64,000 bases of DNA from assembly GCA_958009085.1 (NCBI GenBank), contig OY253676.1, forward strand, positions 310,001-374,000, in the 5' to 3' direction. Under the pieces are notes generated by a model. The model did no database searches and had not been told where the DNA came from. It was given only the letters and a program-made list of their open reading frames with translations. This DNA is from Protoeuglena noctilucae. Taxonomy: Eukaryota. Of the stretch, positions 12,001-38,700 are shown piece after piece (positions within the stretch are counted from its first letter, which is position 1; every line of letters begins with the position of its first letter). Position numbers and translations under genes: made by a program.

Positions 12001-12119
12001 CGACGCAGACGCTCATGACAGCGGGGGCAGGACGCCATCGACACGCGCTGTCCCGAGGCAGTTGTCGACGCACTCACCGGAGGCCCTGGGCCTCCGCAGC
12101 GGCGTTCGGGCTCGTCATA
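1..12119 (-). CDS. Giant multi-exon coiled-coil protein (~3000 aa) with an internal right-handed beta-helix (pectin-lyase-like) domain; 3' end runs off the window
   Basis: Exons can be chained in frame from MTSPNAAAEAQGL(R) (donor 12077) through many E/A/R-rich heptad exons (RADNAALEKEVKRLQSLLE, ASLDELAKYSEGRIRELL, SQAEVERLHRELVEARR...) to the ORF 149..4186 and a further exon 91..1. Beta-helix rungs at ~1000-1540 (VTVTGGTL, LRLAGVTLVGGGLMV, VDVEGCTVREC, LAMRGSEIVDC, AAFEGTIVTRC). Contains N gap 3043-3242. Could be two genes. Confidence 0.7.
2690..3042 (-). repeat. Coding 7-aa (21-nt) degenerate repeat, consensus about ARREAEA
   Basis: REEAATARGEAEAARREAAGARAEAESARRE...AKKEADVAKEEAVAVKRELEA; runs into the assembly gap. 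Confidence 0.7.
3043..3242. other. Assembly gap (200 N)
   Basis: Run of N. Confidence 1.
8396..8511. repeat. 48-bp tandem repeat x~2.4 spanning an exon/intron junction
   Basis: Units start at 8396, 8444 and 8492: ctcaccaacctgctc(g/c)gtatcct..., third partial ctcaccgatctgctc. Confidence 0.85.
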
Positions 12120-13350
12120 CCGCCCGCAGAGCACGAGACGCGGCTGAACCTCGCGCTCAGCGCGCCGGATCCCTGCGCCGGGTGGTCGAGCTGTCCTATC
12201 AGTCCTATCAGTCGCATCCATGGGGCAAGCGACACTGCGTGCCCGCGCCCGTGCAATGGGTTTGAAGCCGAGCTATGCTCGTCCTCGGCGCTCTCGAAAG
12301 GATATGCAGCAGATATTGCGACCCCGCGCAGCGCGGCTGCAGAGGATGCCGCTGAGCCTTTGAACTGAGGGCCGCCCACTCACGGAGAACTCCGTGCTCC
12401 GGACGACACGAGAGGCGCTACCAGCGGGAAATATCCCAGTTGTGAATCATCAGAGCAAGAAATGGCCCTCAGAGTCGGCGTCCCTGGAGCTTGCCAGCAC
12501 CCCCGACGCCCGTCGCAGGTGTCGCGGAGTCAGGCCGACCTTAAAGCTACCGATTCCACCGAAGGTGCTCCATACACGGCGATGCATGCGTGACTGTATG
12601 CCGCAGCACCGACCACTGCTGCGGAAAGCGCCCTTCCACGCGTCCGCCCGACGCCAGGCAACCTAGGGCCTGCCCCCGAGGGCCGGTCGTCCTGACATGA
12701 CCGCGGCGTCGCTCGCCGCTGCTGGCAGAACCGCGTTAGGTAGATCTTGCGTTCTCTCGTTAGCCTGATCCCCTTGTCCGCGTCACCTCAAGCTTTCGCG
12801 TCCCTCCCACCCCGCCAAGGCCCCTCCTCTGCCCCGATTGCCGCCCCTGTATTTGTTGTCCTGAACTTGCGCTGCACAGCTGGCCAGACCGTCGTCGGAG
12901 GCCACCGCTGCGGAGGTGAGCGTGGGAGCGCGCGCAGGGCGTCCCTGGCCCTCCCCATGCCCGACTCGGGCTCTTCGGAGAGACTACGAGGTAGTCTAAA
13001 TCCCCTGATGCCGCGGGGGCGGGCGCCGCGGTCGGAGAAGGGAATCTGTCCTCGTCGCAGCGCGGGGCCGGCATTCCAGGGCAAGCCGGCTTGCCGCGTT
13101 GCCTCGGGAAGGACACAGTGGCGATTTGCCGACCGATCGCGCGCCTGCCGTCCTCGCAGGGCCCAAGAACTGGACGTGGAAGGGAACTCGCGGAATAGCG
13201 CGACCAAGGACGAGCTCGGGGCTTGTTTGAGGGGCTAAGTGGAGCAGTCCGCGTGTCCTGCGTCCGAGGCCCCGACGGGGCGGCCGCTGCGCCCTGGTGG
13301 CGCGTCTCTTGACCGCGCCTTGAGAAGCGTGGCCCCCGCCGGCCCAGACC

Positions 13351-16300
13351 ATGTCCTCCCGCGTTTTCTTCAAGCTCCGGAACCATCGCAAGCAGGAAGA
13401 GGTACTTAGGCCGCTTGCCCGCCGCGCCATGGTGCGTGACGCATGGGATGATGTGCGAGAGCCTCTCAGCAGGGACTTGCTGTGCCCTTTCTGCCCCCCT
13501 GTGTATGACCTTAAAGCTATCTATCCGAGGCGAGGTATAGGTGGGCGCCGTCCTGCCGTGCGTGCCCCGGGCCACCGCTGTGGGCGCCGCGCACGCGAGG
13601 GTGGCGAGCAACGATGCGCAGGCCTTCCAGGCAAAAAAAAAAAAAAAACAGCCTGGCAGCATGCGAGCGCCTCATCCCTCTCAGCGCGTGGCGGACTGCG
13701 TTGCGGCTGCCTCCTGGCATTTCGGCTGCCTCTTGGCTGACGGGCGCACCGGTCCGTGGGCAACAGCCGTGCTTCCTTTCCCGTGGCCCCTTTGGCCGCG
13801 TCGAGCCTTCGCGTGACGAAGCTGTTATATGCCCCTTGCTCGTTGCCAGTCGTCATGTGCCTGGTTGCTTTGCATGCGCTCCCGTTGTACGTGGCTGTGC
13901 GAGGCGTGGCGTTCAAGCAGCTCTGGGGTGCACCGTGGCACGCCTGCCTCTGTTCTCAGTCGCCAGCTCGTATCGTCCCCCCAACGCCGCCTGCAGGTCC
14001 GATTTACGGGCGGCTTCATCTCGGTGGCCGAGCTCAAGCGCTTGATTGCTGCCAAGGCGGGCTTTGGAGAAGGTGCTTGCCCTCGCCCTCCCTGTTGCTC
14101 TGCGTGTCCATGTCGTGGTGGCACCTGCGTGGGCTCGTCCACGCGGCCCGTTGCACTTTGGCGCTCACCTTGGACATCGCAAGCATTGCTCAGCTCCACT
14201 GCTGGCGCCGCTCGTACCCTGGAGCTAGTTTGCTGTTCGCCCAGCCATCCTTGGCCGGGCCTGCTAGCTCTGGCGCGTCTAGTCGCCAATGTTGGGACCG
14301 CTCTTTGCACTGTGCCGTTGCCCCTACCCACGGCGCCCTTCAACGCTACGACTCCCGCAGATGCTGCGGGTGAATTGGACCTGACGGACCCCGTGTCGGG
14401 ACGGGAGCTGCGGGACGACGCGGAGCAGCTGGCGCGCAACGCGTTGGTGGTAGTCAAGCGCGTGGCATACAAGCCCAATCAGCTGGGCGCCAAGGCAGAG
14501 CCGGACAGCGAGGCAGTCAAGGCACGGCGCCGCCTGCGACCTCCGCCGCGCATGCTATGGCTTGTGAACGTGGGGTCTCTTGCTTGCTGCTTGTGGACCT
14601 GGTTAATGACCCGTTGTCTCGATGTGAACGTGACAGCGCCCCCGTGCCGCCGGCTTCGTCGCAGCATGACGCCCCTCAAGAGCCCGCCGCGCCCGCCGTT
14701 AACGAGGAGGAGGCTTTCGGGACTGGCCTGTTCGCCCCGGCTGCGGCCGCCACCGCAGAAGACACTGCCATCCTTGACGAGCTGCAGTGAGCGGCGTGGG
14801 GCTGCCATGCAATGCCCCTGCAGTTTGGCACGCTGTCAGCCGTCGCAGCCGGTACTTGTCGGCTGCAAGAACTCACTGGCGACCACCGTGGCATGTTTAG
14901 GCGCTTAGTGCACGGAATGCGTCAGTCGGTGCCCCTCGCCCCATCCCGTATGAGCAAGCCCACGCCGCCTTGCCCCTGCAGGAAGCGTCTGCAGTCGGAC
15001 ATCAAGAGCGTGCAGCAGGCGCCGCGCTCCGTGCGGCCCAAGCGCGGCAACGTGGCCCCACAGGCAACCTACGTGTGCCCCATCTGCCAGAAAACGGGGC
15101 ACTGGGAGAAGGACTGCCCCGTGGCCAAGGACCCTTCGGTCAAGAAGGTCAAGCTGCCCAACGGCGTGCCCACTTCCGTTCTCATGCTCAACCCCGACGG
15201 GGGCCTGCTCCTTGAAGGCCAGATTGCTGTGTCAGTCGCCGACGCCCAGCGCGACATCTTGCAGGACCTCCAGGGCGGCGCTGCGAGCGCGCCGGCCCCC
15301 GCGGCTGGGGCGGAGGGCAAAGAACTGGTGGCGGCCGGGGAGGGGGGTGCGCTAGTCGCAGGTGGGGAGCAAGGGAACGCGGCGGACACGCAGGGCGCGT
15401 CCCTGATGCCAGTGCTGCAGTCGGGGACCATCCGGAGGCCGTTGCCGCGGCCGGCGGACTGGAAAGAGCGGGAGATTAAGGAGAAGGAGGAGAGGAGGTG
15501 AGCGAGAGGGCGGTGGGGTGGAGCCCAGGGGCAGGGCATGCTCAGGTGCATGCCATACCGCGGTGTGCTGAGTGTGATGGCGAGGCATTAGCGATCGGAG
15601 ACGCAATCCCTGCCATATCAGCGCCCCGCACACATTTTCATGACCGAGTATCTCTATGTGTGCAGGCGTGAAGAGGTCCGTCGTCGTTTGGAGGCTGAGG
15701 CAAAGGCAAAGGAGACAGCGGCGGCAGTGGCCATGGTGAAGGAGGCCACGCCCTCGCCCGTCAACATCCCAGCAGTGCCGCCGAAGCCGCCACCCCGGCC
15801 GAGCCAGGGTGCCAAGCCGGGGGCCTCTCAGCCCATGTCGCAGCCCATGTCGCAGACCATGTCGCAGCCTATGGTGATGGGCGGCATGATGCCGCGGCCC
15901 ATGGGACCCATGGGGCCCATGGGCATGCCGATGGGCTTTCCGATGAGCGGGCCCTTCCCGCCAGGCATGCCGATGCCGATGGGCATGCCTGGTCCCATGG
16001 GCATGGGCCCGATGGGCATGCCAGGCATGATGGGCATGGGCCCGATGATGCCAATGGGACCCATGGGCCCTGTGATGCCGATGCCAGGCCCGCTTCCCAT
16101 GGGCATGGGCATGCCGCCTCCTGGGGCCATGGGACCTCCCCAGGGACACCCCGCAGCGATGGGCCAAGCGCCGACGAGTGGGCCGCCTAACAGCACCGAC
16201 ATGCCCGCACGCCCGCCGACCATGGGACCACCTCAACAGCCCTTGCCCGCCGCGCTGCCTCAGCCGCCCCAGGTGCGTCCGCGCTGCAGCGCTGCGGCTC

Positions 16301-17816
16301 CCTTTGCTCGCCACGCCTTGTTGGTTGCTGCTCGCCACCCAGGCTTGCAGTGTGGCGTCTTTTTGCCATGTCCGACCATGCTACTGAGTATGGCTGATGA
16401 GCGCCGCCGTCGACTGCACGCAGCCCCCGCAAATCCCCGGCATCCCCGCCTCGGCCATGCCGCTTCTGCCCAAGGGCCCCGTGCCGGCGCTGCAGGAGGC
16501 GCTTCAGCCGCCCCGCCCGCTCTCCCGCGAGGAGTTCTACGTGCTCCAGTACCAGCACGGGGTGCGCCTGGGGCTTTGGGACGGCGCGGGGGGCATCGCC
16601 GAGACGGTGCGGCGCATGCGGGAGAACTGGGCTGAGGACTATGCCGACACGTATCGGTACACCGAGGAGCGGGAGAGGGAGAAGGAGCGGGAGCGGCACA
16701 GAGATCGGGATCGGGACCGGGGGCGCGACAGGGACCGGGGCAGGGACCGGGATAGGGATAGGGACAGGGATAGGGACCGAGAGAGAGAGCGGGACTCACG
16801 GAGGGACAGGGAGCGGGATAGGGACCGAGACTCAAGGAGAGACAGGGACAGGGACAGGGATCGAGACAGGGACCGAGAGGCGAGGCGACACGGGGTCAGG
16901 GACCGGGACGACCCGCGCCACCGCGGCGACTCGCGTCCCTCGTCGCGACGCCCGCGGTCCCGCTCCCGGTCGCGGACGCGTTCCCGCTCGCCCTCGCGCT
17001 CGCACCGGCGGTCGCAGGAGGGCCGGGACGCGGGGGCGGGGAGGAGCGGAGCGAGGGATTCGGAGTCGCGCCGGGACTCGCGGCGCGGGGACGGGGGCAG
17101 GCACCGCGACAGGAGGAGGTCGCAGGACTCTCACGATCGCCGGGAGCGCTCGGCGTCCCGCTCGGCGTCGCGCGCGCACGGAGAGAGCGTGGCCGACGCG
17201 GCTGCCACGACGGACCAGGCGGCGGCGGAGGTGGTGGCTGCGGAGAGCAGGGCCAAGGGAGCGGCGAGCGCCAGCAGCAGCGGGAGCGAGGGGGCCAGGA
17301 CGGGCTCGCCTGCTGTGGGGGACTACTACGCAGGGGCGGCGGGGTCGGCGGGCGGTGCTGGGACCGAGCGCGAGGGATCGCCAGTGGTTGGGGAGGGCCG
17401 CGAAGACGGGGATTCCTCACGAAGGCACGAGGATGACGCTGGAGCCGGGGGTGAGGGGCAGGGCGCAGACGCGGAGCGGGGGAGCAAGCGGGCGAGGAGC
17501 GACGAGGGCGACAGCGGTGGCGGTGGCGAAGACAGGTGCGGGGTGGGCGGGGGCTGCGTGCTTGTGGCTGGCAGCTGCATTTCGCGACGTTTCCGCGAGG
17601 CCTCTGCTTGATTGCAGGTCGGGCAAGCGCGTGCGGCAGAGCAGCCTGGATCATGGGGAGGGCGGGGGAACACCCGAGGTGAAGGGGCGAGGAGTGCCCT
17701 GTGCCCCGGGGACGGGGGCTCTTTTCCAGAAGGCGCTTCTCGGATCGCTGCCGACGAGCGACGCGGGGAGCAGCAGGCCGCACGCGGAGGCTCTGAGGCT
17801 GCCGGAGCGGCGGTGA
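13351..17816 (+). CDS. RBBP6: RBBP6/Mpe1-like mRNA 3'-processing factor (DWNN domain + CCHC zinc knuckle + Pro/Met-rich + RD/RS-rich tail)
   Basis: Spliced N-terminus MSSRVFFKLRNHRKQEE|VRFTGGFISVAELKRLIAAKAGFGE|DAAGELDLTDPVSGRELRDDAEQLARNALVVVKRV is DWNN-like; knuckle YVCPICQKTGHWEKDCP followed by KKVKLPNGVPTSVLM; stop at 17814-17816. Confidence 0.85.
16665..16880 (+). repeat. Coding RD/RE dipeptide (6-nt) low-complexity repeat
   Basis: EREREKERERHRDRDRDRGRDRDR... encoded by agggac/cgggac hexamers. Confidence 0.9.
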
Positions 17817-18237
17817 CGCGACCTTGTCGTAGGGCGGGGCAACCCCTGCCAGTCGCGCTGCGCTTCCTGCGCTTCGCATCGCTTGCCTTCGCTCATTTCA
17901 ATTGCTTAACAAACCGCTTGCAAGCCATTGAACGCCGAAGTGCTCGTGTCTTCTTCATTCCTGCTTGCCTCGTGTGCTTGCTCGGGCTTCCGATTGTGAA
18001 CTTCTCAGGGGGCGAGGAACACGGCGATACCTGTGCCGAAGCTACTTGACTCGTCTTGTGTCCTGAGGCGGCCCCGGACGACCAGATAAGAGCGCGGAGG
18101 TGAAAGCAACGCGCCACCTCGCATCGGAAGAGTCTTTTGCAAAGCAAACGCTTTCATTAGAAAACAAAGTATAACCTCCTTCCGCTATCATGGGCTGTTG
18201 CGACAACGAGCAACAAAGCGATGAACAAGGCGGGCCT

Positions 18238-18269
18238 TGTTCATGGAGCACGGTGTTCATGGAGCACGG
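18238..18269. repeat. 16-bp perfect tandem duplication upstream of the pseudokinase-exonuclease gene
   Basis: tgttcatggagcacgg x2. Confidence 0.85.
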
Positions 18270-18307
18270 TGCATGTAACCCTGGACGCACGCTCTCTTCA
18301 TCCGCAG

Positions 18308-20427
18308 ATGGCCGCTGTCGTAGAGGCGCCAACAGAGGTGGAAAAGGTCCCGTTGACGAACGCGGGCATTCCGGATTGGGGCTTGGATGCGGTGGGAGGG
18401 GAGGTCAAATTTCGCTTCAAGCTTGACCGCGACGACGAGAGCCGGGGGCAATGCGTCGTGGTGCGTGGCCATCGTAGCCTGTACATATGTGTCGGCCAGA
18501 GCACGAGCGCGTTTATGACACAGCAAAGGGTGCTTTTGCTCAGGTCAAGCAATACCGCATCGGCGACCGGGACACCAAGGACGTCAAAGCAAGTCTGCGG
18601 CAGCTGATGGCAGGACCCGGAGCAAGCTACCTTTGGCCGTGAGTCGATGCTGTCGGCCAAGCGCATGGCACCAAGCATATCCCCTGCTCTCGTTTCACGG
18701 CAGCCCACTCCACCTACCCATCCACTGCAGGATGTTGGATGTCGAAACGTCTGTTGACGGCTGCCTGTCCGTCACATCTCCCTTCGCTTTTGCTGGGTCC
18801 CTGAAGACACACATGCGTCTTGATCGGGCCGCGTTCGGGGAGGCCAACATCAACAGGTTTTTGGACTTGGCGGAGGGGCTGCTCCTTGGCCTGCAGCACC
18901 TGCACGGGCAGGGCCACGCGCACGGCTACCTGACGCCAGGGACGGTGCTTTTCAGCGATGCTAGACGGGTGAAGGTGGCGGGGTTCGAGATGGCGGTGGT
19001 ACAGCCCCTGCTGGCGGATGCGCCTCAGGTAAGCTCGGCGCAGTGGAGCAGGTCGTGGGACTGTGCAAAGCCTGAAGAGGCTTTCACGACTTAAGGGCCT
19101 TCCCTTCGTGTGATTTCAGATCACCGGGTCGACAGCTCGGCACATGGCCCCGGAGCTCTTAAGCGCAGAACCAAACGCCAAGTCTGACGTGTACTCTGTC
19201 GGCATGGTGCTGCTCCATGCGACATCGCGTGAGGAGCCTTTCGGCGAGTTTGACGACTTCATGGACGTCTGCGGTGATGCCGGGAAGTACCTGCTGAAGC
19301 TTCACTTTAAGCAATATGGGTGGATGCCAGGGCCCATTCGCACTGCCATCAACCACGCCCTGCGATCGCCAGATCGCCGCCCCTCGATCGAGGCGTTCCT
19401 GGACGCTGTCCGCCAGAGTAGGTGGGCTGTGATGCATTCGTCACCTTGCAGGGGTCCTGGGCTCAGACACCACCAATGATATCGTGCGTGCACCCTCTTC
19501 CTCAGGGCACTGCTGGGCCAGCAGGATGACGCGGCATTTGACCTGGCGGCCCTCGGGGATGCCCTGCCTATCTCGCCGACGTGGGAGGGGCAGGAGCGCC
19601 AAGGGGTCATTACATGCTCGGATTGCAAGTACTCGTCCAACTCGACAGAGTTCCCCACCTGCACGCTCCGCTGTGGGTATGACCAGTGCTCCTGGCACCT
19701 GAAGAGTCCTGCAGAGCCCAGGCTCAGGTTAACGGCGGCGCCCCAGGACCTTGTGTACATATTTTACGATCTTGAGGTCGCCTACTATGCTGCGACCGGA
19801 GCCTGCCGCAGCCGGGCGCTCTGGGAGATCGGCGCGGTCGCCGAGGACGGGCGGTGCTTCACCAAGCGCGACCTCAAGGACGCTGGGCAGGAGGCCGAGA
19901 AGGACGCCGTGCGGGCGTTCCTGCAGTGGGTGTGCGACGTGTCAAGGTCCACCCTGGCAGAGAGAGGGCGTGAGGCTGTCAGCCCCGCGCAGGTGGTGCT
20001 GGTCGCCCACAACGGCAGCAACCATGACCATCACCTCCTCCTGGCTGCGGTGGAGCGCCACGGTCTCGTCATTCCCGACTTCACTCTGGGCGACAGCATG
20101 GTTGCCATCAGAAGGAATCTCCCCAGCGGCCTGGAGAATGCCCAGTTGCCTGAGACGCTGGTGCCCCATTACTCGGGTGACATGGTGCGGGGTAGGCCCA
20201 CAAAAAAACTCATGCACCACGGGGACGTCGATAGCGTGTTTTTGGCGGCTGTGGTGATGAGGTGGGACGTGAGAGGCTGGCGCGAGGCCCTGGGCAAGTA
20301 CTGCACGAGCGTGCAGCGGTACTGGGACTCACTCGGGGACCAGTTCGAGAGGTGGTTCTCCCACAAGAAAGAACAATTTTCTCACGAGTTCGAAGTGGGG
20401 TCTTTGAGCGTTTCAGACACCTTCTAG
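18308..20427 (+). CDS. Pseudokinase - Cys/His cluster - DEDDh 3'-5' exonuclease fusion protein (589 aa, 5 exons)
   Basis: Exons 18308-18460, 18544-18638, 18731-19028, 19120-19421, 19506-20427, all GT-AG, sum 1770 nt, open frame. Kinase fold: VVVK, LQHLHGQGHAHGYLTPGTVLF, VKVAGFE, HMAPE, KSDVYSVG, RRPS. Exonuclease motifs: FYDLE, LVAHNGSNHD, HHGDVD. Confidence 0.85.
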
Positions 20428-20530
20428 TGCATCTGCTACCCGTGGCGGTAGCAGGCACGGGTCGTGGGCACATCGCCATTGAAAAGAAGAAAGCCGGACA
20501 AATACCCCTCACTGGCGACAGAGTCCCTCG

Positions 20531-21081
20531 CTATTGTTCCAACTGCTTCCGAACCTCGTCGTTCCGCGCCATGCCCCGCATCAGCATCCCCATCATCGCG
20601 TCCGCCCCCTGCCCCGCCTCCTCAAAAACCACCTCCAGCTCGTTTCCCCCGGGTGTCCCGAACGCCAACTTGCTGCGTGGCGCCACCATGTAAGACACGC
20701 CCGCCCTCAGCTCGACCCCTCCCAGGTACGTGCGAGAAGCCCTGCGTGCGGGCAGCGTGAGGCAGGTCCCTTGTTGCCCACCAAGCCATGCTGAAGGACG
20801 GGTGCATAGGGATACAAGTGCTCTTACCCGTTCAGTGCCTTCACGAAGACCCTGCCCTGCGCGTAGCGAATTTCCGCGTGCTCGTCGAACGTCTCGGGCC
20901 CCGTGATCCGAACGTCCGCCTTTTCGGCCCTCCCGACGGTGAGCTGGCCGGTGAGGGATATGGGCGGGCCCGATCCGGGACGAAGCTCCGCTGCGCCCTT
21001 CTCCGCGCGAGCTAGGACGGCTCGGCGCGACCCCCGGGCCATGCATGCCACCGAGAGGCGCGGCCGCTGGATGCACGCCAT
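20531..21081 (-). CDS. FHA-domain protein with probable organellar transit peptide (2 exons)
   Basis: LTVGRAEKADVRITGPETFDEHAEIRYAQGRVFVKALNG|ASRTYLGGVELRAGVSYMVAPRSKLAFG fits the FHA fold (GR, H, terminal FG); intron 20827-20742. Confidence 0.75.
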
Positions 21082-21272
21082 CTCGTGCAGGCAGGGGCGG
21101 CTACTGTCTCTGAGGAGTAGATCGATGCTCACAGAGACGGTGTGTGTGAGCCCATTCGGGAGAGGAGGTGCTGAGATCCTGGGAGGCCACGACCGTCGTC
21201 TGGCGTGTCATCAACACGCTGGGAAGCGGTGAAAGCCAGCCAGAACACACCGCCAGGGCAGTGACCGAGCCA

Positions 21273-28897: not shown

Positions 28898-31491
28898 ATG
28901 CCCGGTGCCATGTACGTGAGAAGAGCGATGACGGAGGGGATGAAGGGCTCCGATTTCCTGCCCAGCCGCGAGCCCGGCAGGCTCCCGGGGACGGGGGTGC
29001 CGGCATTCCATCCAGAGGACGAGTTCGGCGGGGGGAGGGGCTTCGAGAAGACGTTTGAGGCGTCCTCCAGGCCGTTTGGGCTGTTGTCGCCTGAGGGAGG
29101 GTGAGAGGGAGCTCGGCGTGGCGCGGGAGGGCGGGACCCTCGCTGTGTCCATCGCGGTGCTGCGCCCTCCGCGCGGACGCGATCGAGCGTCGGAGGCGCC
29201 TCCCATGGGCCGCGCATGACAGCATGCCTTACGTGATCTATGTGCAGCGCCGTGGATGGCTAACGGCGACGATTTCGCGAGCTGTGCCGTCCCCGCAGGT
29301 CTGCGCTGCTCTCCAGCCTCCCTGGATACGCCGCGCTCGGGAACGCCGCGCTGGCAGTGGCCCTCGTGCTTCTGGCTCTGTCCAGCCTCTACGGGGCCGG
29401 GATGCACGCGGCGCTGCTCCTGGCCGTGCTGTGCGCTGGGGCTGCCGTGACGGGCGGGGCGTCAGCGGTGAGCGAGGGCCGGGCTCGCGCGCAAGGGTGC
29501 TTCCGCGGGCCGTGCACAGGAACTGCCTCGCACCGCAGGTGCTGCGACGCCCCAACACCAAGCTCCGGCTGGCGACGCTGGTCCTCATCGGGCTGGCGTG
29601 CGTGGCTGCCTTCAACTTCAAGACCGTCGTGGTGGTGCGTGGGCAGGGCGTTTAACGACGATGGCCCCGCTGCCTACCCGTCCCACATGGACTTGTTACC
29701 CGGCCGCTGCCTTGCCTTGCCCCATGCAATCCGTCGGCGCTCGCGCGGCTCGCAGGACGACCGCAACACGGCCTGTGCCTTCTCCGAGGCCTTCCTGCGA
29801 CTGGGCAACGTCGAGCAGGTCGTCTGGGATGACCACAACAGCGAGCTCATCCACACGCTGTTCAACAGGCAGGGAGCCGCACCCCTAGCCGCCTGTGCTG
29901 CGACGCCGCTCGCAGGTCGAGATGGGGAGAGCCGCACCCTTGCCAATCCTTCCAGCCCCAACTCCGCAGGCTCAGCGAGGTCGACTCCATGCTGAACTCG
30001 GCGCACAACGTGGCCACCATGCACATCTTCTCCGACGAGCAGGAGGGCGTCCGCAAGATGAAGTCCGTGGATGCCTCCTACCTCAAGAGCCGGCTGGACG
30101 CCGTCCGGGAGCACGCGCACCAGACCTTGACCTATCTCGAGAACCTGCACCGCAACCACACTGCGGCGAGTGCCGGGAGCGGGGTTGACGCGACGCCCTC
30201 TGCGCATGACGTCGGTCCCGTCGTGCGGCGCTGGCGATGATCTGGTCACTGCATATGCCCCTGCCCTGCAGGCCATGGATGCCGGCGTGGCCTCGAAGGA
30301 CATCCGGAGGAACGAGCGCGTGGTCCAGGCCATCGCCAGCCGCATGGACAACCGTTGAGGGGCTGAGCACACGCGCTCACGCTTCGCCACCGTCACCTGC
30401 ACACCGTGTCGCGTTTGACCTCTTCCGCTGCCGCTCACTCGCACCTCACGAAACTCCCCCACTGCGCTCTTCCCAGTTCGCGAGGTCATCGACTGGATGA
30501 ACAACCCCGAGACGAACGTCACGCCTGAAGACTACGAGCACGTCCTGGAGGTCCTCGTGGACCTGTCGGGGTTCCATCCGGACCATCTTCTCGAGGACAA
30601 CACCGTCCTGCGCCTGGCGGACACTGACCTGATGCGAAAGCTCGAGCCCGGTGAGATGGCCAAAGGGGCTTGATGAGGCGGACCAGGTTGGGCGGGCGGC
30701 CACTGCGTGTGGGTCTTCGTGCGGGTGCTCATTATTGACGGCGCTCCTGCAGTGCGGAACTCGCGATGTCTTTTTGTGCAGAGCTGCACGAGGTGCCTCA
30801 CGTCAAGGTGACCCTGGGGCGCTTCTCGAAAGATGACTACAAGTGGGAGCACGCGTTCGACAGGCAGAGGGAGGCCGCGGAGAAGCTGAACCGGGTGCGA
30901 AGCAGCGCTGGGGATGGCTGTTGAGGCTGGTGAATGAGAAGTGGTGTTTTGTGACTCGCTGGCCGTCTGTTGGTGTCAACGCCAGTGTGACCTGAAGTGC
31001 CCATTGTGCCTCTGCAGCATCAGGTGGCCAGGCTGCACAAGGCCAACTTTGAGTTCCAGAAGACCATGGAGGTGAGTCGACGCTTCTCATCTGCAGCTTG
31101 TGTGGGTTGGCCACACAGTGCGTCGCGCGCTGGCCGTGCCAGTCCTTGGCATGCTACGCCTTCCAGTCACACCCGGCACACGTCGGCGTTCGCAGAAGAA
31201 GATGGAGAAACTCCACGAGTCTTTCAAGATCGACAACCTCATCTCGCAGATGCCAAGCCACTGCGTGAATGAGAACAAGGCGAGCGGCCCCATGCTTCGC
31301 TCCGGTGCAGAGACCCACCCTGGGTGGAGCTGGGGGCCACGCTCGGCTGCCCTGTGTTTGCAATCTGTGGCGCTCTTCCACCGCAGACCATGTGGCTGTC
31401 CCAGCTCCTGGGGTGGGCGGCCATCCTGCTGCAAGGGGGCGCTGCATGGGCGATGGGCTCTGCCGTGGTGGATGACGTCAAGTCCGCGTGA
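28898..31491 (+). CDS. Unrecognised membrane protein: 3 N-terminal TM helices, long helical loop, C-terminal TM (about 11 exons)
   Basis: Frame-preserving exon chain; TMs AALAVALVLLALSSLY, AALLLAVLCAGAAVTGG, LATLVLIGLACVAAF and final WLSQLLGWAAILLQGGAAWAM; start uncertain. Confidence 0.6.
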
Positions 31492-31635
31492 GGGTATCCT
31501 TGGGCGTCGGGCCTGGCGAGCGCTGGCGAGCCAATTACTTGAATTGCTTTGTTCAGGCAGCTAGCTGACACGGTCGTACCGCAAGCAGAGCGGTGGGGAC
31601 GTGGGAAGTGAGGCGGCAACTACGCGTCACTCAGC

Positions 31636-32282
31636 TCACGGTCCGTATGCCTCCGGAGGCGGGGGCAGCATTTCCGAACCCCGCATGTCGAGCATGATTG
31701 TGAGGGCAAAGTATGCGAGGCCCAGGGCAATGGAAACTGCGCCGGTCCAGATAGCTGCGGGCAGGAACGGTGGGGTCGTGTTGATGCACGCATGGGGCCA
31801 TTCCAGGATGTCGCTGACGAGCTTGCCTGCGCCCCTCGCCACGCACCTGTGCNNNNNNNNNNNNNNNNNNNNNNNNNNNNNNNNNNNNNNNNNNNNNNNN
31901 NNNNNNNNNNNNNNNNNNNNNNNNNNNNNNNNNNNNNNNNNNNNNNNNNNNNNNNNNNNNNNNNNNNNNNNNNNNNNNNNNNNNNNNNNNNNNNNNNNNN
32001 NNNNNNNNNNNNNNNNNNNNNNNNNNNNNNNNNNNNNNNNNNNNNNNNNNNNCGTCGGCATCTCCAGGCCGTACTCGGACTTGGCAGCACGCTGCGGGGG
32101 TGCAATTCCGAGACGATGAGCGAGGCCTGGTGCGCAGGCCCGGCACTGGGAGGCTGGGGAGAGGGGCCGGCAGGCAGAGGAATGCTCACCCGACGCAGCG
32201 TCCTCCGCGAAGCCTGCCTGGGTCCGTTGGCGCCCCGGGTGCGCGGCGCCACCGCCCGCCCCGTCGGTGCGCACGCCTGCAT
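31636..32282 (-). CDS. Small single-TM protein, probably plastid-targeted; interrupted by the gap
   Basis: Arg/Ala-rich leader MQACAPTGRAVAPRTRG; last exon IWTGAVSIALGLAYFALTIMLDMRGSEMLPPPPEAYGP resembles, from memory, a small membrane protein family shared by cyanobacteria and plants. Confidence 0.55.
31853..32052. other. Assembly gap (200 N)
   Basis: Run of N. Confidence 1.
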
Positions 32283-33022: not shown

Positions 33023-35502
33023 ATGGCGTTCCTCAACAGCGTGATCGCGGAGTTCCGGGACCAACTCAACGCCATCACGGTCCAGTGAGTGGGGCGCCGC
33101 GCGCTGTGCACGCTGGGGGAGCTTCCGCTTCTGCATGGTGTAAATGCGATTTCTTTGCACTGGAGGCGCGAGTGCCTTTGCGTCCCACCCTGCCTTTGCG
33201 TCACAACGCATGTGTTTCCACTGCACAGCCTCTGCGTCGATCGGGCCGCAGGGTGCGTGACATCGAGCCCCTTTCTCTGGTGGCAAAGGACATGGTGCAT
33301 TTCGCCCCAGACATCGCTGCCGCCGTCGAGCAGCACATCTTTGCTGTCAGGTGAGGAACGCCAGCGTTCCGGAACGGCCGTTTCCGCAGCCAGTTGGGAC
33401 GATCCCGGAAGCGGGTGCCCTCGATATCTTGCCGCAGGGACCTCCCAGCGCAGCGGCTCGCCTGCCTGTACCTCATCGACAACATCTGCAAGCGCGTCGG
33501 GCAGCCATACAACGAGCTCTTCTCAAAGGTAATGGAGGGCCCTAGCCCAGAGTCTCCGCTCCGCCTTGACGGCACCCGCCCAAAGTGCATGCGACGTCTC
33601 TCCGCCCCAGAACCTGCCCGCGCTCTTCCAGCAAGCGTACCGCACTCTGCCGGGTCTTCGTCACAAGATGCGCAGCCTGCTCGACGTCTGGGGACGCATG
33701 CAGCTCTTCCCGGCGGGGGTGCTCCAACACACGACGGCGCTGGCAGACGCCGAGGACGCAGCCGACGCCGCCGCCGGAGCGCAGGCGAGGCGCACTTTGC
33801 TTAGAGTCAAAACGATCCTCCGAACACGGCCTGAGCATTGGGCGCTCCCCGACAGCACCTAACGAAACGCTGCGCATTCCGCCGTGTCCCGATACAGACT
33901 GCGTGGGTGGCTCCCGGGCCCCCGTCCTTCCCCCTGCCCCCGCCGCCGCCGCGAGATGCGCGCCATGCGAACGGTGCGATGCCGCCCGCCTCGACCCCCC
34001 ACATGGTTCCAACGGTTCCCTTAGAACCGCCCCCGCCCGCCCGGCCCCTCTCGCCGCGTGTCGGGTCCCTGCCGCCCCCTCCCGCCAGCGACCTCGACCC
34101 CCCACCCCCGGCTGTCCTGGGCGCCACAGGGGCCGGCCCCAGCTCTGCGTGGTGAGCCGTGCAGCATGTTCATTGCAGACACTGGTCGCCTTAGGTGTTG
34201 CGCTGTCCGTGCGACTTCGACGCCGTTTCCTGCCGCGCAGGTCCGAAAGGCAAGGCAGCCATGGACTGGCGGGGTCGCGGGCATCGCCAGCTGCGATGGG
34301 CAGCGGCCACGACGTCTGGGGCCCGCCGGGGACCAGGCCAGGCGCATGGGAGCAGCCAGGTATGGAGGGGTGGGGTGGCAAGCGGCCAACGGAATGGGAC
34401 AGCGGGGAGGGCCCTCCCGACCCGAAACGTGCGCGGGTTGCGGAAGACGAGACGCGCGTGGCGGTGACCGACAGCCTCTTGCGCGAGCTGCTGTCAGGTG
34501 CGTGCGCCGCCGGAGCCCACCCGACGCTCGCCAGTGCATGGCGCCGACACGCAGTGACCATGCCTCGCGCGTTTCCCGCAGCGGGCGTCATCGTGCCCGA
34601 CGACAGTGCCCCTGCCGCGGCCGGCGCCGGTGCGGCTGAGGACGCAGAGCCTGGGTGGATGCCCACCGATGAGGACGTGCAGCTCAGCGCGGCCAAGCTG
34701 CGGTCCGACCCCAGCGCAGCGCTGCGCAGGCTCAAGTCGGAAAGCCAACGGACGCGTCAGACCATGCTAGACATCATCGGTGAGCTCTAGTGGCGACCAG
34801 GTTGCCGCAGGGTGCGACTCGGTAGCGTCCGACACCCAGCAGTCCTGATCGCGCTCCCCGGCTCCGTTCGCAGTGGCCCGCCGCCGCGTTCAGGAGCAGC
34901 ACCGGAAGTGGTACCCATCGGAGGCGCAGTGGCTGGAGGCCGTGGTCGACGCGCCGCCTGGGGGCGGGGCCGAGGATGATTCGGGGGCGCAGGCGTTGCC
35001 CGACCCGCAACAGTTCAAAGTCCCGCGAGACGAGTCGCAGACGACGTGCGCCGTGTCGGGAGAGCCCTTGGAGGCACAGTGGGACGAGGGCCTGCAGGGG
35101 TGGGTGTACGTGGGTGCACGGCGGCTGTGCGGGGATGAGGCGGCCTTGTACGGGGTGCCGGATGGAGCCATCGCCAAGGTCTCGTGTCTCAGGTGCGAGT
35201 CCCTGCTGCGATGGTCGATCAGAAGAGCTCCTGACAGCGACTGGCGCTTGGTCTGGTGGCGATACGACAGCCATGGCGTAACGCTCCGGTGTTTTGTGTG
35301 CAGGAACGATGGCCTGCCAGACCTCGGCCTGGCGACCGTGGAGTCCTCACGGGGCCCTCCCAGCTCCGCAGTCACCGCACCGTCGACAGATGCGCAGGGA
35401 GGAGAGCAGGGTGCTGGAGATGGCGCGGGGGCGGCAGAGGCGGAGCCGGAAGCCGCTGGCATTGCTGATCAAGTTACTGGTTTCGATGATGTCGACGTAT
35501 AA
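33023..35502 (+). CDS. PCF11: PCF11/PCFS4-like cleavage and termination factor (CID domain, C-terminal Clp1-binding/zinc-finger region)
   Basis: CID: QRLACLYLIDNICKRVGQPYNELFSK|NLPALFQQAY...MRSLLDVW..MQLFP; C-terminus RKWYPSEAQWL, VPRDESQTTCAVSGEPLEAQWDE..GWVYVGA. Confidence 0.85.
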
Positions 35503-35713: not shown

Positions 35714-38700
35714 ATGGGGGTGAAGGGGCTGACCACCTGGGTGCGTGGCGCGACGGTGGAACGGTGGCGGGCTAGCACTTGGGGCGCCTCGCCTGCCGCG
35801 CGAGAACGCAACGGTGGAACGGTGGCGGGCTAGCACTTGGGGCGCCGCGCCTGCCGCGCGGGAAGGGTCCGGACATCGATGTACCTGACGATCCCGTTTG
35901 CGTGAGACATCCTGCGCCTGTGACCAATCGCTCGGCCGCGCCGCGCAGGTGGGCCAGCACTACCAAGACTGCGTCGTCGACGCCACGCACGCCTCCTTCG
36001 ACCATGTGTTCGTGGACATGCCGTGCGTCTTGCACGAGACGATGCGCGCGGCATCATCATCGGACATGTTCGCCAAGCTCGTCTTTCAGCGCCTGGACGA
36101 GGCCCTGACCGTGACGCCGCCGCGCAAGAGCTTGTTCCTCGCGCTCGACGGTCCTGCACCGCTCGCGAAGCTTTTGACGCAACGCGTCAGGCGTCATAAA
36201 GAGTACAGCGTCGTGGAATCGTCAGGCGTGGACCTAGGTGCGCCCCAGGGCCCGCGTGCCGTCCTCTGTTGCGCCTCCGTCCGCCACGCCGGCCGCCGAT
36301 TGCCCCGCCAGCTGATATCCGCAGAGGACAGCACGGACTCCGAAAGCGCGGATGACGAGGACTACCTGGAAAGCGTCGCCGGGGTGGAGGAGGAGGCGAC
36401 TGGGGGTGTGGCGTCCAAGAGCGGAGGGCAGGAGGCGGGCCCGGGGCTTTCCGAGCCAGACGCCGCGGAGCTGGCGCGCCGGGCTCCGCCTCCGTCGTTC
36501 CCCGATTCGTGGTGGACCGACCCAAAGGAGAAGCGGATGCGCTCCGTGGCGCTCACGCCCGGCACGCCCTTCATGCTATGGGTCGACCACCTGCTTGAGT
36601 ACTGGGTCTATCAGCGACTCTCCAACGCCAGGTGCGTGGTGCAGGTGTCGATGCGGGTGCTGGTGTGAGTCTTGGAAGCGATGGGGGGCTTACTGTGATG
36701 GGAGAGCACTTGGCAGCCATCCTGTGCCATCCTGCGCCATCCTTAACCCCTCAAGCGTCGCCTGCGTGCCCAGGTGGTCAAATATCCTAATCGAGCTCTC
36801 ACCGTCGAGACACGCCGGCGAGGGCGAGCTGAAGCTGTTCCACCGGTGCGGCACAGCAGCGCTCCTCAGCCATGCCCCACCGCACTGCCCGCGCTAGCTG
36901 CACCCCCACACTCCCCCCGCCCACTCTGCGCCGCAGCATGCACTTTCCCATAACGTGCTCCACGATCTCGACCGGAGGCCCGCTCGAACAGGAGGGCGTG
37001 AGCCCCGCATCCAAGACCCTGCTCCGCAAGCCACAGCACCCCTCGGCGCCTTACACTCCGAAGTCCGCGCGCCTGTTTGGCGGTCGGTACCGGTCGCAGG
37101 AGACCGTGCTTGTGCTGGGGGCAGACACGGACATGCTGATGATGGCCCTCATCTCCCGCGTCCCAAACATCTTCATTCGCTCCACGTCGCGCATGTGAGG
37201 CGAAGCGCCGGGCTCACGAGCCGCCCCCTGCCCGCCCCTCCTGGGCCGCTGCGCCAGTTGCTCACCGCAGCAACGCCCGTCGCCACGCAGGCCCGCCCTG
37301 AACATCCAGCCTCGCAACAAGAAGTCGATCATCACACTGCGGGAGCACGACCCTCGGACCTTCGCCATGCGCGTCGATCCCAAGTGAGGCGGTCGCAGAT
37401 GAACGGACGCGGATTCGGATCCACTCGCCGTCGATGCCTTTGCGGGCTGCGCTGCTTGCCGCCCATCGCTGCCCATCGCCCGCCCATGGCCTCCCCGCCC
37501 CAGGGCAGTGCTGCGCCGCGGTCCCCGCTTGACGGCCGTCTCCGTGGACCGCCTCCGCGCGCTGCTCCTCGACTCTCCCGTCTGGGCCCACATCCAGCCG
37601 CTGACCCAGAGGGCCCTGCCTGTCGCCCGCCTCGACCAGCGCGACCCCACCACCAGCACCACCACCGCCACCACCACCGCCGCCACCTCAGTTTCACCAA
37701 AAGCTGGCACTTTACGGGGCCCATCTGCGAGGCCCGTTAGGGTGACGTCATCCTTGCGGGAGCCGTTAGGTGTCACGATGGACGCCAAGCGCCTGGGGTC
37801 CGCGGCGGTGTCGGCATTGGAAGCGGCGGCGATGGACCTGGCCGTGATGCAGGTCATGGCGTGCGGGAACGACTATTTGGACAAAGTCGGAGGGGCGCGG
37901 CTCGACCCCGGCAACGGTGAGTGGCTCATTCCACGCAGTGCCAAGTGGGGTGGCGGCCGTTGATTGTTACCTGCACGCCGACTGCTGCCGCCTCTCCCGG
38001 TGCTTCCTGGCCCTCCCCGGGAGTGCCGGCGCGGACCTGGCCATACCAACGCTGCCCTTTCGCATGTCCTGCCCGCAGTAATGGGCTACGACTGCAGGGG
38101 CGTCCTGGAGGCCTACGCCCTGGTGTTGGGGTCCCCGGGCATGCAGGGCCGCAGCATTGTGCTCAGCGTCGCGGGTCGCATCTGGCTCGACCTCGAGGTG
38201 ACTGCCGCTGTGCCTGACTCAGCGCAGTCACGGCGTCTACATCAGGGTGCGCATAGGGTGATGACACGCTTGTTGAGCTTTGCGCCGGCACGCATGCGGC
38301 CCCGTCGTTGCACCTCCCAGGTCCTGCGCCGTGTGTTGCTGGTGTCGCTGCACCCCACCGTCATTGCCAAGACCACCGTCGGATGGGAGTACAACCGTGG
38401 CATCTTCCCGTTCATCTTCCCCGAGCCTGAGACGGTCGTCTACCTCTTCGGCCTTCAATGGACCATCGACATGTACCGCTTCAACAGGTGACGCATTCCA
38501 ACCCTCTAAACACTTCTCAACCCATCGGGGGACCCGCAGCCCGTCCCGCGATCGTGCCACGAGTCACCCGCGCAGGGTGCTGGACGTGGGGTATAGCCAC
38601 CCCAACCACGCGGGGTTCATCGGCAACTTCATTTCGGACCTGACGCTCATGGTGGCCGCACAGAGGGACGAGAGGGGCGTTGCGAACGATGAGGCGGCGG

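Follow-up and report, generated by a model that had tools for sequence, protein, structure and literature searches.

A single-chain fusion of a pseudokinase, a putative zinc-binding module and a predicted DEDDh exonuclease in Protoeuglena noctilucae

Kinase folds that regulate nucleases have been described in two arrangements: in cis in RNase L and IRE1, in which a kinase-fold domain acts as regulator of a KEN endoribonuclease on the same chain, and in trans in PAN3-PAN2, in which the regulated enzyme is a DEDD nuclease. For PAN2-PAN3, one published account states that the pseudokinase partner is required for efficient nuclease action (PMC4158885), and for TREX1 another describes an obligate homodimer with an extended beta-sheet across its protomers and action across the dimer interface (PMC8047136). 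Here we describe a gene on the forward strand of a 64,000-nucleotide stretch of the Protoeuglena noctilucae contig OY253676.1 (positions 310,001 to 374,000, hereafter the window; coordinates below are those of the window), which encodes on one chain a pseudokinase, a putative CCCH zinc-binding module and a predicted DnaQ/TREX-type DEDDh exonuclease domain (Table 1). The explanation that we consider best, with a probability of roughly 0.6, is that this real gene of 589 codons specifies a magnesium-dependent 3'-5' DEDDh exonuclease whose pseudokinase would serve as a regulatory or scaffold domain.

The three part types found in PAN2-PAN3, a pseudokinase, a CCCH zinc finger and an exonuclease of the DEDD superfamily, are all present in the window protein. 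However, PAN2 and PAN3 are separate polypeptides whereas the window protein is a single chain, and its zinc module lies between the two domains and belongs with the exonuclease family and not with the pseudokinase. Characteristic of PAN3 is a pseudokinase with a C-terminal knob, and of PAN2 the combination of UCH and RNase domains; neither Pfam family matched at E≤1 in a search with P0013 (a database copy of the protein, described below), and the protein is not a member of PAN2-PAN3. The KEN endoribonuclease of RNase L and IRE1 is unrelated to the DEDDh fold considered here, and the KEN family was likewise without a match to P0013 at E≤1, which places the protein outside that group. TREX1, TREX2 and Plex9.1 have their fold in common with the window protein (Z 14-15.4, root-mean-square deviation (rmsd) about 3 Å, 151-173 residues aligned), as well as all five catalytic residues, and the ExoII motif 'VAHNG..D..LL' aligns directly. 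Sequence similarity to TREX1 and TREX2 is nevertheless marginal (E 0.0038-0.57 by profile, 0.32 with a single sequence), and TREX proteins lack both the CCCH module and the pseudokinase. Its only relatives by sequence are a family of standalone proteins that have the C-C-C-H and ExoI-III columns in common with the window protein but carry no kinase.

The spliced model joins five coding exons into 1770 nucleotides (nt) without internal stops, ending in a TAG codon at 20425-20427; its four coding introns are all bounded by GT..AG, measure 83-92 nt and have 55-61% G+C. A run search returned four RNA runs from one marine metatranscriptome study that held 30-69% of the sampled words, and a further four runs ('organism A') that held all of them. 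Contigs of the RNA runs X1, X2 and X4 and of the DNA-type run X5 were compared with the window; those of X2 and X4 cover the gene in part only, which has no bearing on expression. All four coding joints, as well as the joint in the 5' untranslated region (UTR), were visible in RNA contigs with GT..AG ends. The first record of X1 spans the 5' non-coding exon, the first two coding exons and the beginning of exon 3, with joints at 18460/18544 and 18638/18731, and the second (1592 nt) runs through exons 3, 4 and 5 to 20542, with joints at 19028/19120, also seen in X2 record 5, and 19421/19506. In the DNA run X5 the whole stretch is present unspliced and in one piece. The start codon, ATG at 18308, follows the 5'-UTR intron immediately, and an N-terminal extension is ruled out by an in-frame TGA at 18064-18066, upstream of this ATG in the joining frame.

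Independent support for the spliced model comes from P0013, a 589-amino-acid (aa) Joint Genome Institute protein on a 2030-nt contig, which clusters at 90% with the exon-5 protein and is identical to the spliced translation residue for residue. Without a splicing-aware gene caller, such a protein can be obtained only from intron-less (cDNA) sequence. A tblastn search of the window with the spliced model revealed no second copy (best other match E 0.95). Neighbouring open reading frames (ORFs) in the window, which has 58-71% G+C, encode DWNN plus zinc knuckle, FHA, ribosome recycling factor, XRN_N, MTP18 and IBR domains, and these ordinary eukaryotic domains indicate a nuclear eukaryotic locus. 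The gene is real, expressed and nuclear, and it encodes one chain of 589 aa. A preliminary description, made from the sequence letters, had proposed five canonical exons and a single 589-aa frame, and had suggested reverse-transcription PCR across the 19421/19506 junction. The RNA joints and the identical P0013 confirm these coding exons, that junction is present in X1 record 2, and the kinase and nuclease parts, which could have proved to lie on separate transcripts, are together in both X1 record 2 and P0013; what the description lacked is a sixth, non-coding exon at the 5' end of the transcript. Upstream of the gene, at 16388-17611, is an Arg/Asp- and Arg/Ser-rich ORF with long RD/RS repeats. 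X1 record 1 (1501 nt) starts 787 nt before position 17700, probably inside this ORF, and continues unbroken into the 5' non-coding exon, indicating that the RD/RS and pseudokinase transcripts overlap or read through.

The C-terminal domain is predicted to have a DnaQ/TREX-like fold with a complete catalytic set (D371, E373, D457, H520 and D525). Two family alignments were used, A1 with 11 sequences and A2 with 17, in which P0009 was exchanged for the longer cluster member P0033. Conservation across A2 was high at the ExoI Asp and Glu (14/17 each) and at the ExoIII His and Asp (16/17 each), and complete (17/17) for the H-x-G and Asp of ExoII, for a further Asp (D479 here) and for the putative zinc ligands C, C, C and H; all of these residues are present in the window protein. 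When a profile built from A1 was compared with the PDB, nine of the ten matches at E≤10 were DEDDh exonucleases, including a TREX-like protein (E 0.0014, the best), TREX2 (0.0038), DNA polymerase III (Pol III) epsilon (0.09), the DinG exonuclease and TREX1, and ExoII and ExoIII aligned with TREX2 residue for residue. The DEDDh model of PADLOC matched two of the relatives from ExoI to ExoIII (P0006, E 1.5e-4; P0034, E 1.2e-3), and among NCBIfam models DNA polymerase III epsilon matched at E 0.0016 over aa 444-485, with further matches to the PolC and DinG exonucleases. Language-model (Atlas) features pointed to Pol III epsilon and RNase_T clusters (0.84-0.90).

Structure prediction points the same way. 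An AlphaFold2 model of exon 5 computed with the 17 sequences of A2 reached a predicted local distance difference test (pLDDT) score of 69.3 and a predicted template modelling score of 0.72; a single-sequence model (pLDDT 32.9) was not used. Foldseek ranked TREX2, Plex9.1 and RNase T at the top, and nearly all of its top matches were DEDDh or polymerase exonuclease domains. In VIA-align, model residues 72-287 superposed at about 3 Å rmsd over 151-185 residues on the EXO-like domain of Exuperantia (5l80; Z 16.2, rmsd 3.5, 185 aligned), on TREX1 (Z 15.4-13.7; for 9ava Z 15.4, rmsd 3.0, 166 aligned), on TREX2 (Z 14.7-14.1; 6a46, 14.7) and on Plex9.1 (within Z 14-16). We infer that the domain is an active enzyme, most likely one that trims DNA or RNA at the 3' end with two metal ions and a His base, as other DEDDh enzymes do.

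The putative zinc module directly precedes this domain. It has no significant Pfam family, zinc_ribbon_6 reaching no better than E 0.076, and we rejected this match as chance along with the other weak Pfam matches of exon 5, PrmC_N (0.013) and 2-ph_phosp (0.17). A phmmer search of 1.84 billion cluster representatives with exon 5 gave nine matches at E≤1e-3, namely the protein itself (P0001), the SprB-repeat protein P0008, and seven standalone proteins of 204-337 aa with E values from 5e-8 to 7e-4. P0008 (1234 aa) was judged a spurious low-complexity match and left out of the alignments. A profile search yielded eight further relatives of 302-376 aa. None of the relatives, which range from 204 to 376 aa, has a kinase domain, and those with names, KAG6019468.1 of Claviceps citrina, KAF4505974.1 of Ophiocordyceps sinensis and KC359_g8911 of Hortaea werneckii, are all hypothetical proteins. 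Judged by its sequence, the window protein belongs to this small unnamed family, which we define by C-x2-4-C ... C-x2-H directly N-terminal to ExoI-III together with significant similarity, both of which were found.

Relatives are encoded at 11 metagenome loci. In tblastx comparisons, six of these (L001-L006; 58-61% G+C) proved collinear for more than 10 kb; they carry densely packed long ORFs, nearly all without a Pfam match. Among these ORFs are a divergent family-B DNA polymerase in L004 (1-16027) at 12094-14898 (PF00136, 9e-35; best PDB match archaeal PolB, 9e-27) and an RNA-polymerase-like ORF with Rpb1 domain 2 (1.5e-10) at L002:2427-4298 and L006:452-2227 (locus L006:1-11620). The six loci look like an uncharacterised virus-like or plasmid-like element, for which the closest named proteins are ascomycete; at L009 and L010 the relative lies among ordinary genes (MOSC, DNA polymerase phi). 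The zinc-exonuclease module is at least partly a gene of this uncharacterised polymerase-encoding element, a context that hints at a role in nucleic-acid processing and at a mobile origin. Viral collections gave no specific link: among IMG/VR viral contigs 19 pattern matches included no confirmed relative, so that a viral source is not shown in that collection, and a BFVD fold search returned generic viral exonucleases only, the best being a Medusavirus exonuclease-domain protein (E 1.9e-4).

The kinase identity of the N-terminal half was evident from Pfam matches of P0013 to Pkinase (PF00069; 42.1 bits against a cut-off of 31.7, E 8.7e-11, aa 100-225) and PK_Tyr_Ser-Thr (PF07714; 32.1 bits against 23.1, E 9.3e-8, aa 42-222), with exon 4 alone matching Pkinase at E 2.6e-5, and from 353 PDB kinase sequences matching at E≤0.01, led by Myt1 (1.9e-8), IRAK4, CTR1 and RAF. 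Several kinase motifs are kept, namely VVVK with K53, APE (192-194), SDVYSVG (204-210) and RRPS (268-271), and the kinase part had a pLDDT of 77-79 in the folds made for the binding test described below. In the alignment with Myt1, the window sequence 'HAHGYLTPGTVLF' stands opposite 'LVHLDVKPANIFL', with H-G-Y against H-L-D, such that the HRD Asp is replaced by Tyr149, the catalytic-loop Lys by Thr151 and the Asn by Thr154; further on, 'KVAGFE' lies opposite 'KLGDFG', and the DFG Asp is replaced by Gly167. None of the three residues that mark an active kinase (HRD Asp, catalytic-loop Asn, DFG Asp) is present at these positions. An alignment with the kinase P0042 displaces the DFG register by a few residues and also leaves HRD and DFG without an Asp; this shift is immaterial because neither stretch, aa 145-157 or aa 160-176, contains a single Asp. 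The domain is accordingly classed, from its residues, as a pseudokinase that lacks the HRD Asp, the catalytic Asn and the DFG Asp and would be unable to transfer phosphate. PADLOC and NCBIfam kinase matches (MAD6, MkoA, PD-T4-6, LanL, PknB) were rejected as evidence for a defence function, being generic and far below curated cut-offs. As a separate observation, an 8447-nt contig of the DNA-type run (X5 record 14) has 22 bases in common with the 'LQHLHGQG' region of the pseudokinase (18890-18911) and then continues into ...PVICHHDLK with an intact HxD loop; it may represent a paralogue of the kinase, catalytically active and encoded at another place in the genome.

The boundary between kinase and linker falls exactly at the intron 19422-19505, and three introns interrupt the kinase part while the zinc and exonuclease module lies on one exon. 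This arrangement suggests a fusion by exon joining, in which an intron-bearing kinase gene would have been joined at an intron to the intron-less zinc-exonuclease exon. G+C content at third codon positions (GC3) is 0.75 in the kinase part, 0.80 in the exonuclease part and 0.84 in the upstream ORF; with host-like values in both halves, neither looks freshly imported. In the protein, a flexible linker of about 30 residues would separate the pseudokinase from the CCCH module. To the kinase part (aa 1-283) and exon 5 we applied an in-silico binding test, in which the interaction prediction score from aligned errors (ipSAE) was 0.81 in 3/3 runs, with the best control at 0.38, a value that expresses model confidence and not binding, and that was obtained without alignments, for two halves of one chain and with a calibration that is mainly microbial. 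Of 78 solved complexes, 51 attain that mark, as do 2 of 108 mismatched pairs; agreement between the runs is no lower than 68% of contacts, and the partner had a pLDDT of at least 64. Predicted contacts involve kinase residues 35-49 (the beta2-beta3 hairpin), 100-113 (the hinge region) and 157-159, and in exon-5 numbering residues 111-120, 134-141 and 222-255, of which in the model 111-120 are the beta2/beta3 edge of the central sheet and 222-255 the helix that carries the ExoIII D525. At the level of models, this supports a packing in which the kinase N-lobe uses its hairpin and hinge to contact the nuclease at the ExoIII helix and at the edge strand that is free (beta3). The edge strand used by TREX dimers is presumably the same strand that is predicted here to meet the kinase N-lobe. 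We hypothesize that the N-lobe stands in for the dimer partner, in that TREX1 dimerizes through its extended beta-sheet whereas the edge strand of the window protein is predicted to pair with the N-lobe instead.

No other fused protein was found. Among proteins of 537-2000 aa, 0 of 5514 candidates scored as fused relatives of exon 5 at E≤1e-3; a full-length search gave one of 8000 scored candidates at that threshold, P0042, which is a generic kinase and not a fused relative; and the 1.84 billion cluster representatives held no fused form beyond the protein itself. In the full text of literature outside subscription journals, as far as that covers the field, we found no fusion of a protein kinase or pseudokinase to a DEDDh/DnaQ exonuclease. 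The fusion is known so far from one species. Regarding the domains, the motif positions given in the preliminary description (VVVK, HGYLTPGT, AGFE, APE, SDVYSVG, RRPS and ExoI to ExoIII) were all as claimed; its pseudokinase prediction agrees with the absence of Asp from the catalytic-loop and DFG stretches, whatever the alignment, and the protein and literature searches found no characterised family with its pseudokinase::DEDDh architecture. Its statement that all DEDDh residues are kept also held, with a DnaQ/TREX fold in the model (AlphaFold2, Foldseek, VIA-align), and the nuclease identity that it proposed is backed by profile, fold and motif evidence but not by a curated Pfam RNase_T match. 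The description further suggested that nucleotides or dimerisation might gate the nuclease, and that it might act against viruses or in RNA turnover; of this functional picture, only the physical coupling of the two domains has gained support, from the in-silico binding test.

Besides the stated limits of the binding test, several observations weigh against reading the gene as a regulated exonuclease. RNase_T (PF00929) had no match at E≤1 on the window protein, and in two of the eight relatives scanned it scored 15.3 and 16.5 bits against a cut-off of 24; the DEDDh assignment therefore comes from profile, fold and motif evidence and not from a curated family. A single-sequence PDB search with exon 5 reached at best E 0.32 (TREX2, over ExoII), 65 of the 306 residues of the AlphaFold2 model have a pLDDT below 50, which makes its confidence middling, and no Foldseek match attained E≤0.001 (best 1.5e-3). 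On the kinase side, the glycine-rich loop is degenerate ('AVGGEVKF') and the alphaC Glu is not obvious on inspection by eye, so that nucleotide binding by the domain appears doubtful. One short contig, X4 record 9 (170 nt, depth 2.3), is unspliced and runs from inside the intron 18639-18730 into exon 3, contrary to clean splicing; it is pre-mRNA or DNA carry-over. Moreover, with no orthologue in the databases searched, purifying selection on the fusion is not measurable. The best structural match is also an adverse one, since the EXO-like domain of Exuperantia is catalytically dead. It is conceivable that the exonuclease-like domain is, as in the Drosophila protein, no enzyme but a scaffold that binds nucleic acid or protein, making the window protein an adaptor of two dead folds. 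The failure of RNase_T to see the domain would fit such a role, as would the lineage-specific differences from the family, which comprise insertions after ExoI and before ExoIII and a deletion after beta3. However, although identity to the nearest relatives is no more than 22-28%, the window protein retains the five DEDDh residues and the ExoII H451 and G453. Several relatives have themselves lost one or more of these residues, showing that retention in the window protein was not automatic, and we regard a dead exonuclease as unlikely.

A different doubt concerns the joint function rather than the parts. The gene may be a young, lineage-specific chimera that arose by exon joining and is transcribed and spliced without any selected joint function, its halves not cooperating. 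The lack of any orthologue or second fused form in the searches above and the coincidence of the module boundary with an intron are what such a chimera would leave behind; yet its 589-codon frame is intact, the GC3 of both halves argues against a recent arrival, catalytic residues and zinc ligands have been kept, the predicted interdomain interface passes its controls, and RNA contigs occur in four runs of one study. Set against one another, these points leave a functionless chimera improbable, to about the same degree as a dead exonuclease. A kinase that works in some non-canonical way, with the nuclease or the substrates of the nuclease as its phosphorylation targets, could be argued from the retained beta3 Lys K53, APE and subdomain IX and XI motifs, but the domain has no HRD Asp, no catalytic Asn and no DFG Asp, nor any nearby Asp that could compensate, and we consider this highly improbable. 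The regulated exonuclease that we prefer can also be extended to a bolder proposal, which at present we hold to be unlikely as a whole: the N-lobe would replace the second protomer of a TREX-type dimer, filling out the exonuclease beta-sheet next to the ExoIII helix, a ligand or partner in the dead kinase cleft would switch the nuclease on or off, and the exonuclease, originally one of replication or repair, would have been captured by the alga from a polymerase-encoding virus-like element and rewired as a sensor-coupled antiviral or anti-mobile-DNA effector.

Table 1. Positions of the gene, its transcript features and its predicted domains in the window.
Feature	Position	Strand	Residues, basis or remarks
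5' non-coding exon	17700..18099	+	3' end 18099 exact; X1 record 1 continuous from 17700 or before, then spliced to 18308
5'-UTR intron, 208 nt, GTGAAA..CCGCAG	18100..18307	+	GT..AG joint in X1, depth 20.3
Coding exon 1	18308..18460	+	aa 1-51; start codon, strands of the kinase N-lobe
Coding exon 2	18544..18638	+	aa 52-83; beta3 Lys K53 at 18547-18549
Coding exon 3	18731..19028	+	aa 83-182; degenerate HGYLTPGT 18921-18944, degenerate DFG (AGFE) 18978-18989
Coding exon 4	19120..19421	+	aa 183-283; kinase C-lobe with APE, SDVYSVG, RRPS
Coding exon 5	19506..20427	+	aa 283-589 and stop; intron-less; linker, zinc module, exonuclease
3' UTR	20428..20636	+	RNA contig ends: X1 record 2 at 20542, X4 record 12 at 20557, X2 record 6 at 20636
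Pseudokinase domain	18431..19421, introns included	+	about aa 42-283; Pfam and PDB sequence matches
Linker from kinase to zinc module	19507..19593	+	aa 284-312; pLDDT below 50, residues 1-29 of the exon-5 model
Predicted CCCH zinc-binding module	19615..19698	+	C320, C323, C344, H347; ligand columns and model pLDDT 68-75
Predicted DnaQ/TREX-type DEDDh exonuclease domain	19720..20367	+	aa 355-570; profile, fold, motifs
ExoI, D371-L-E373	19768..19776	+	motif and family alignment
ExoII, AHNGSNHD	20005..20028	+	D457 at 20026-20028; motif, aligns with TREX2 'VAHNG..YDF'
ExoIII, H520-x4-D525	20215..20232	+	motif, aligns with TREX2 'H..A.GD'

Other genes surround the locus. A convergent gene on the reverse strand (20531-21207) encodes an FHA-domain fragment, has an RNA-confirmed intron at 20741-20826 (CT..AC on the forward strand) and has its 3' end no more than about 100 nt away from that of the pseudokinase gene. 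Some 15 kb downstream lies an ORF fragment with the N-terminal domain of an XRN 5'-3' exonuclease (35889-36665; 2.3e-20), which, together with an ORF for a PCFS4-type zinc finger at 34849-35499, represents ordinary RNA-processing genes. The G+C minimum of the window (0.584, against 0.65-0.70 around it) is at 30001-32000, where the ORFs are without a Pfam match.

The weight of these findings is limited by the single species and by functions predicted from sequence and models. Within this limit, the protein would be the first cis fusion of a eukaryotic-type pseudokinase to a DEDDh exonuclease found in our searches, uniting the three part types of PAN2-PAN3 in one chain with the zinc module in the middle. 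If the bolder proposal of a captured, sensor-coupled effector with the N-lobe as substitute protomer were true, RNase L would have in this protein a eukaryotic counterpart built on a DEDDh nuclease. Being small, soluble-looking and expressed, it should be tractable for studying the control of an exonuclease by a dead kinase, and it draws attention to a family of zinc-plus-exonuclease proteins, so far unstudied, that fungi and polymerase-encoding elements carry.

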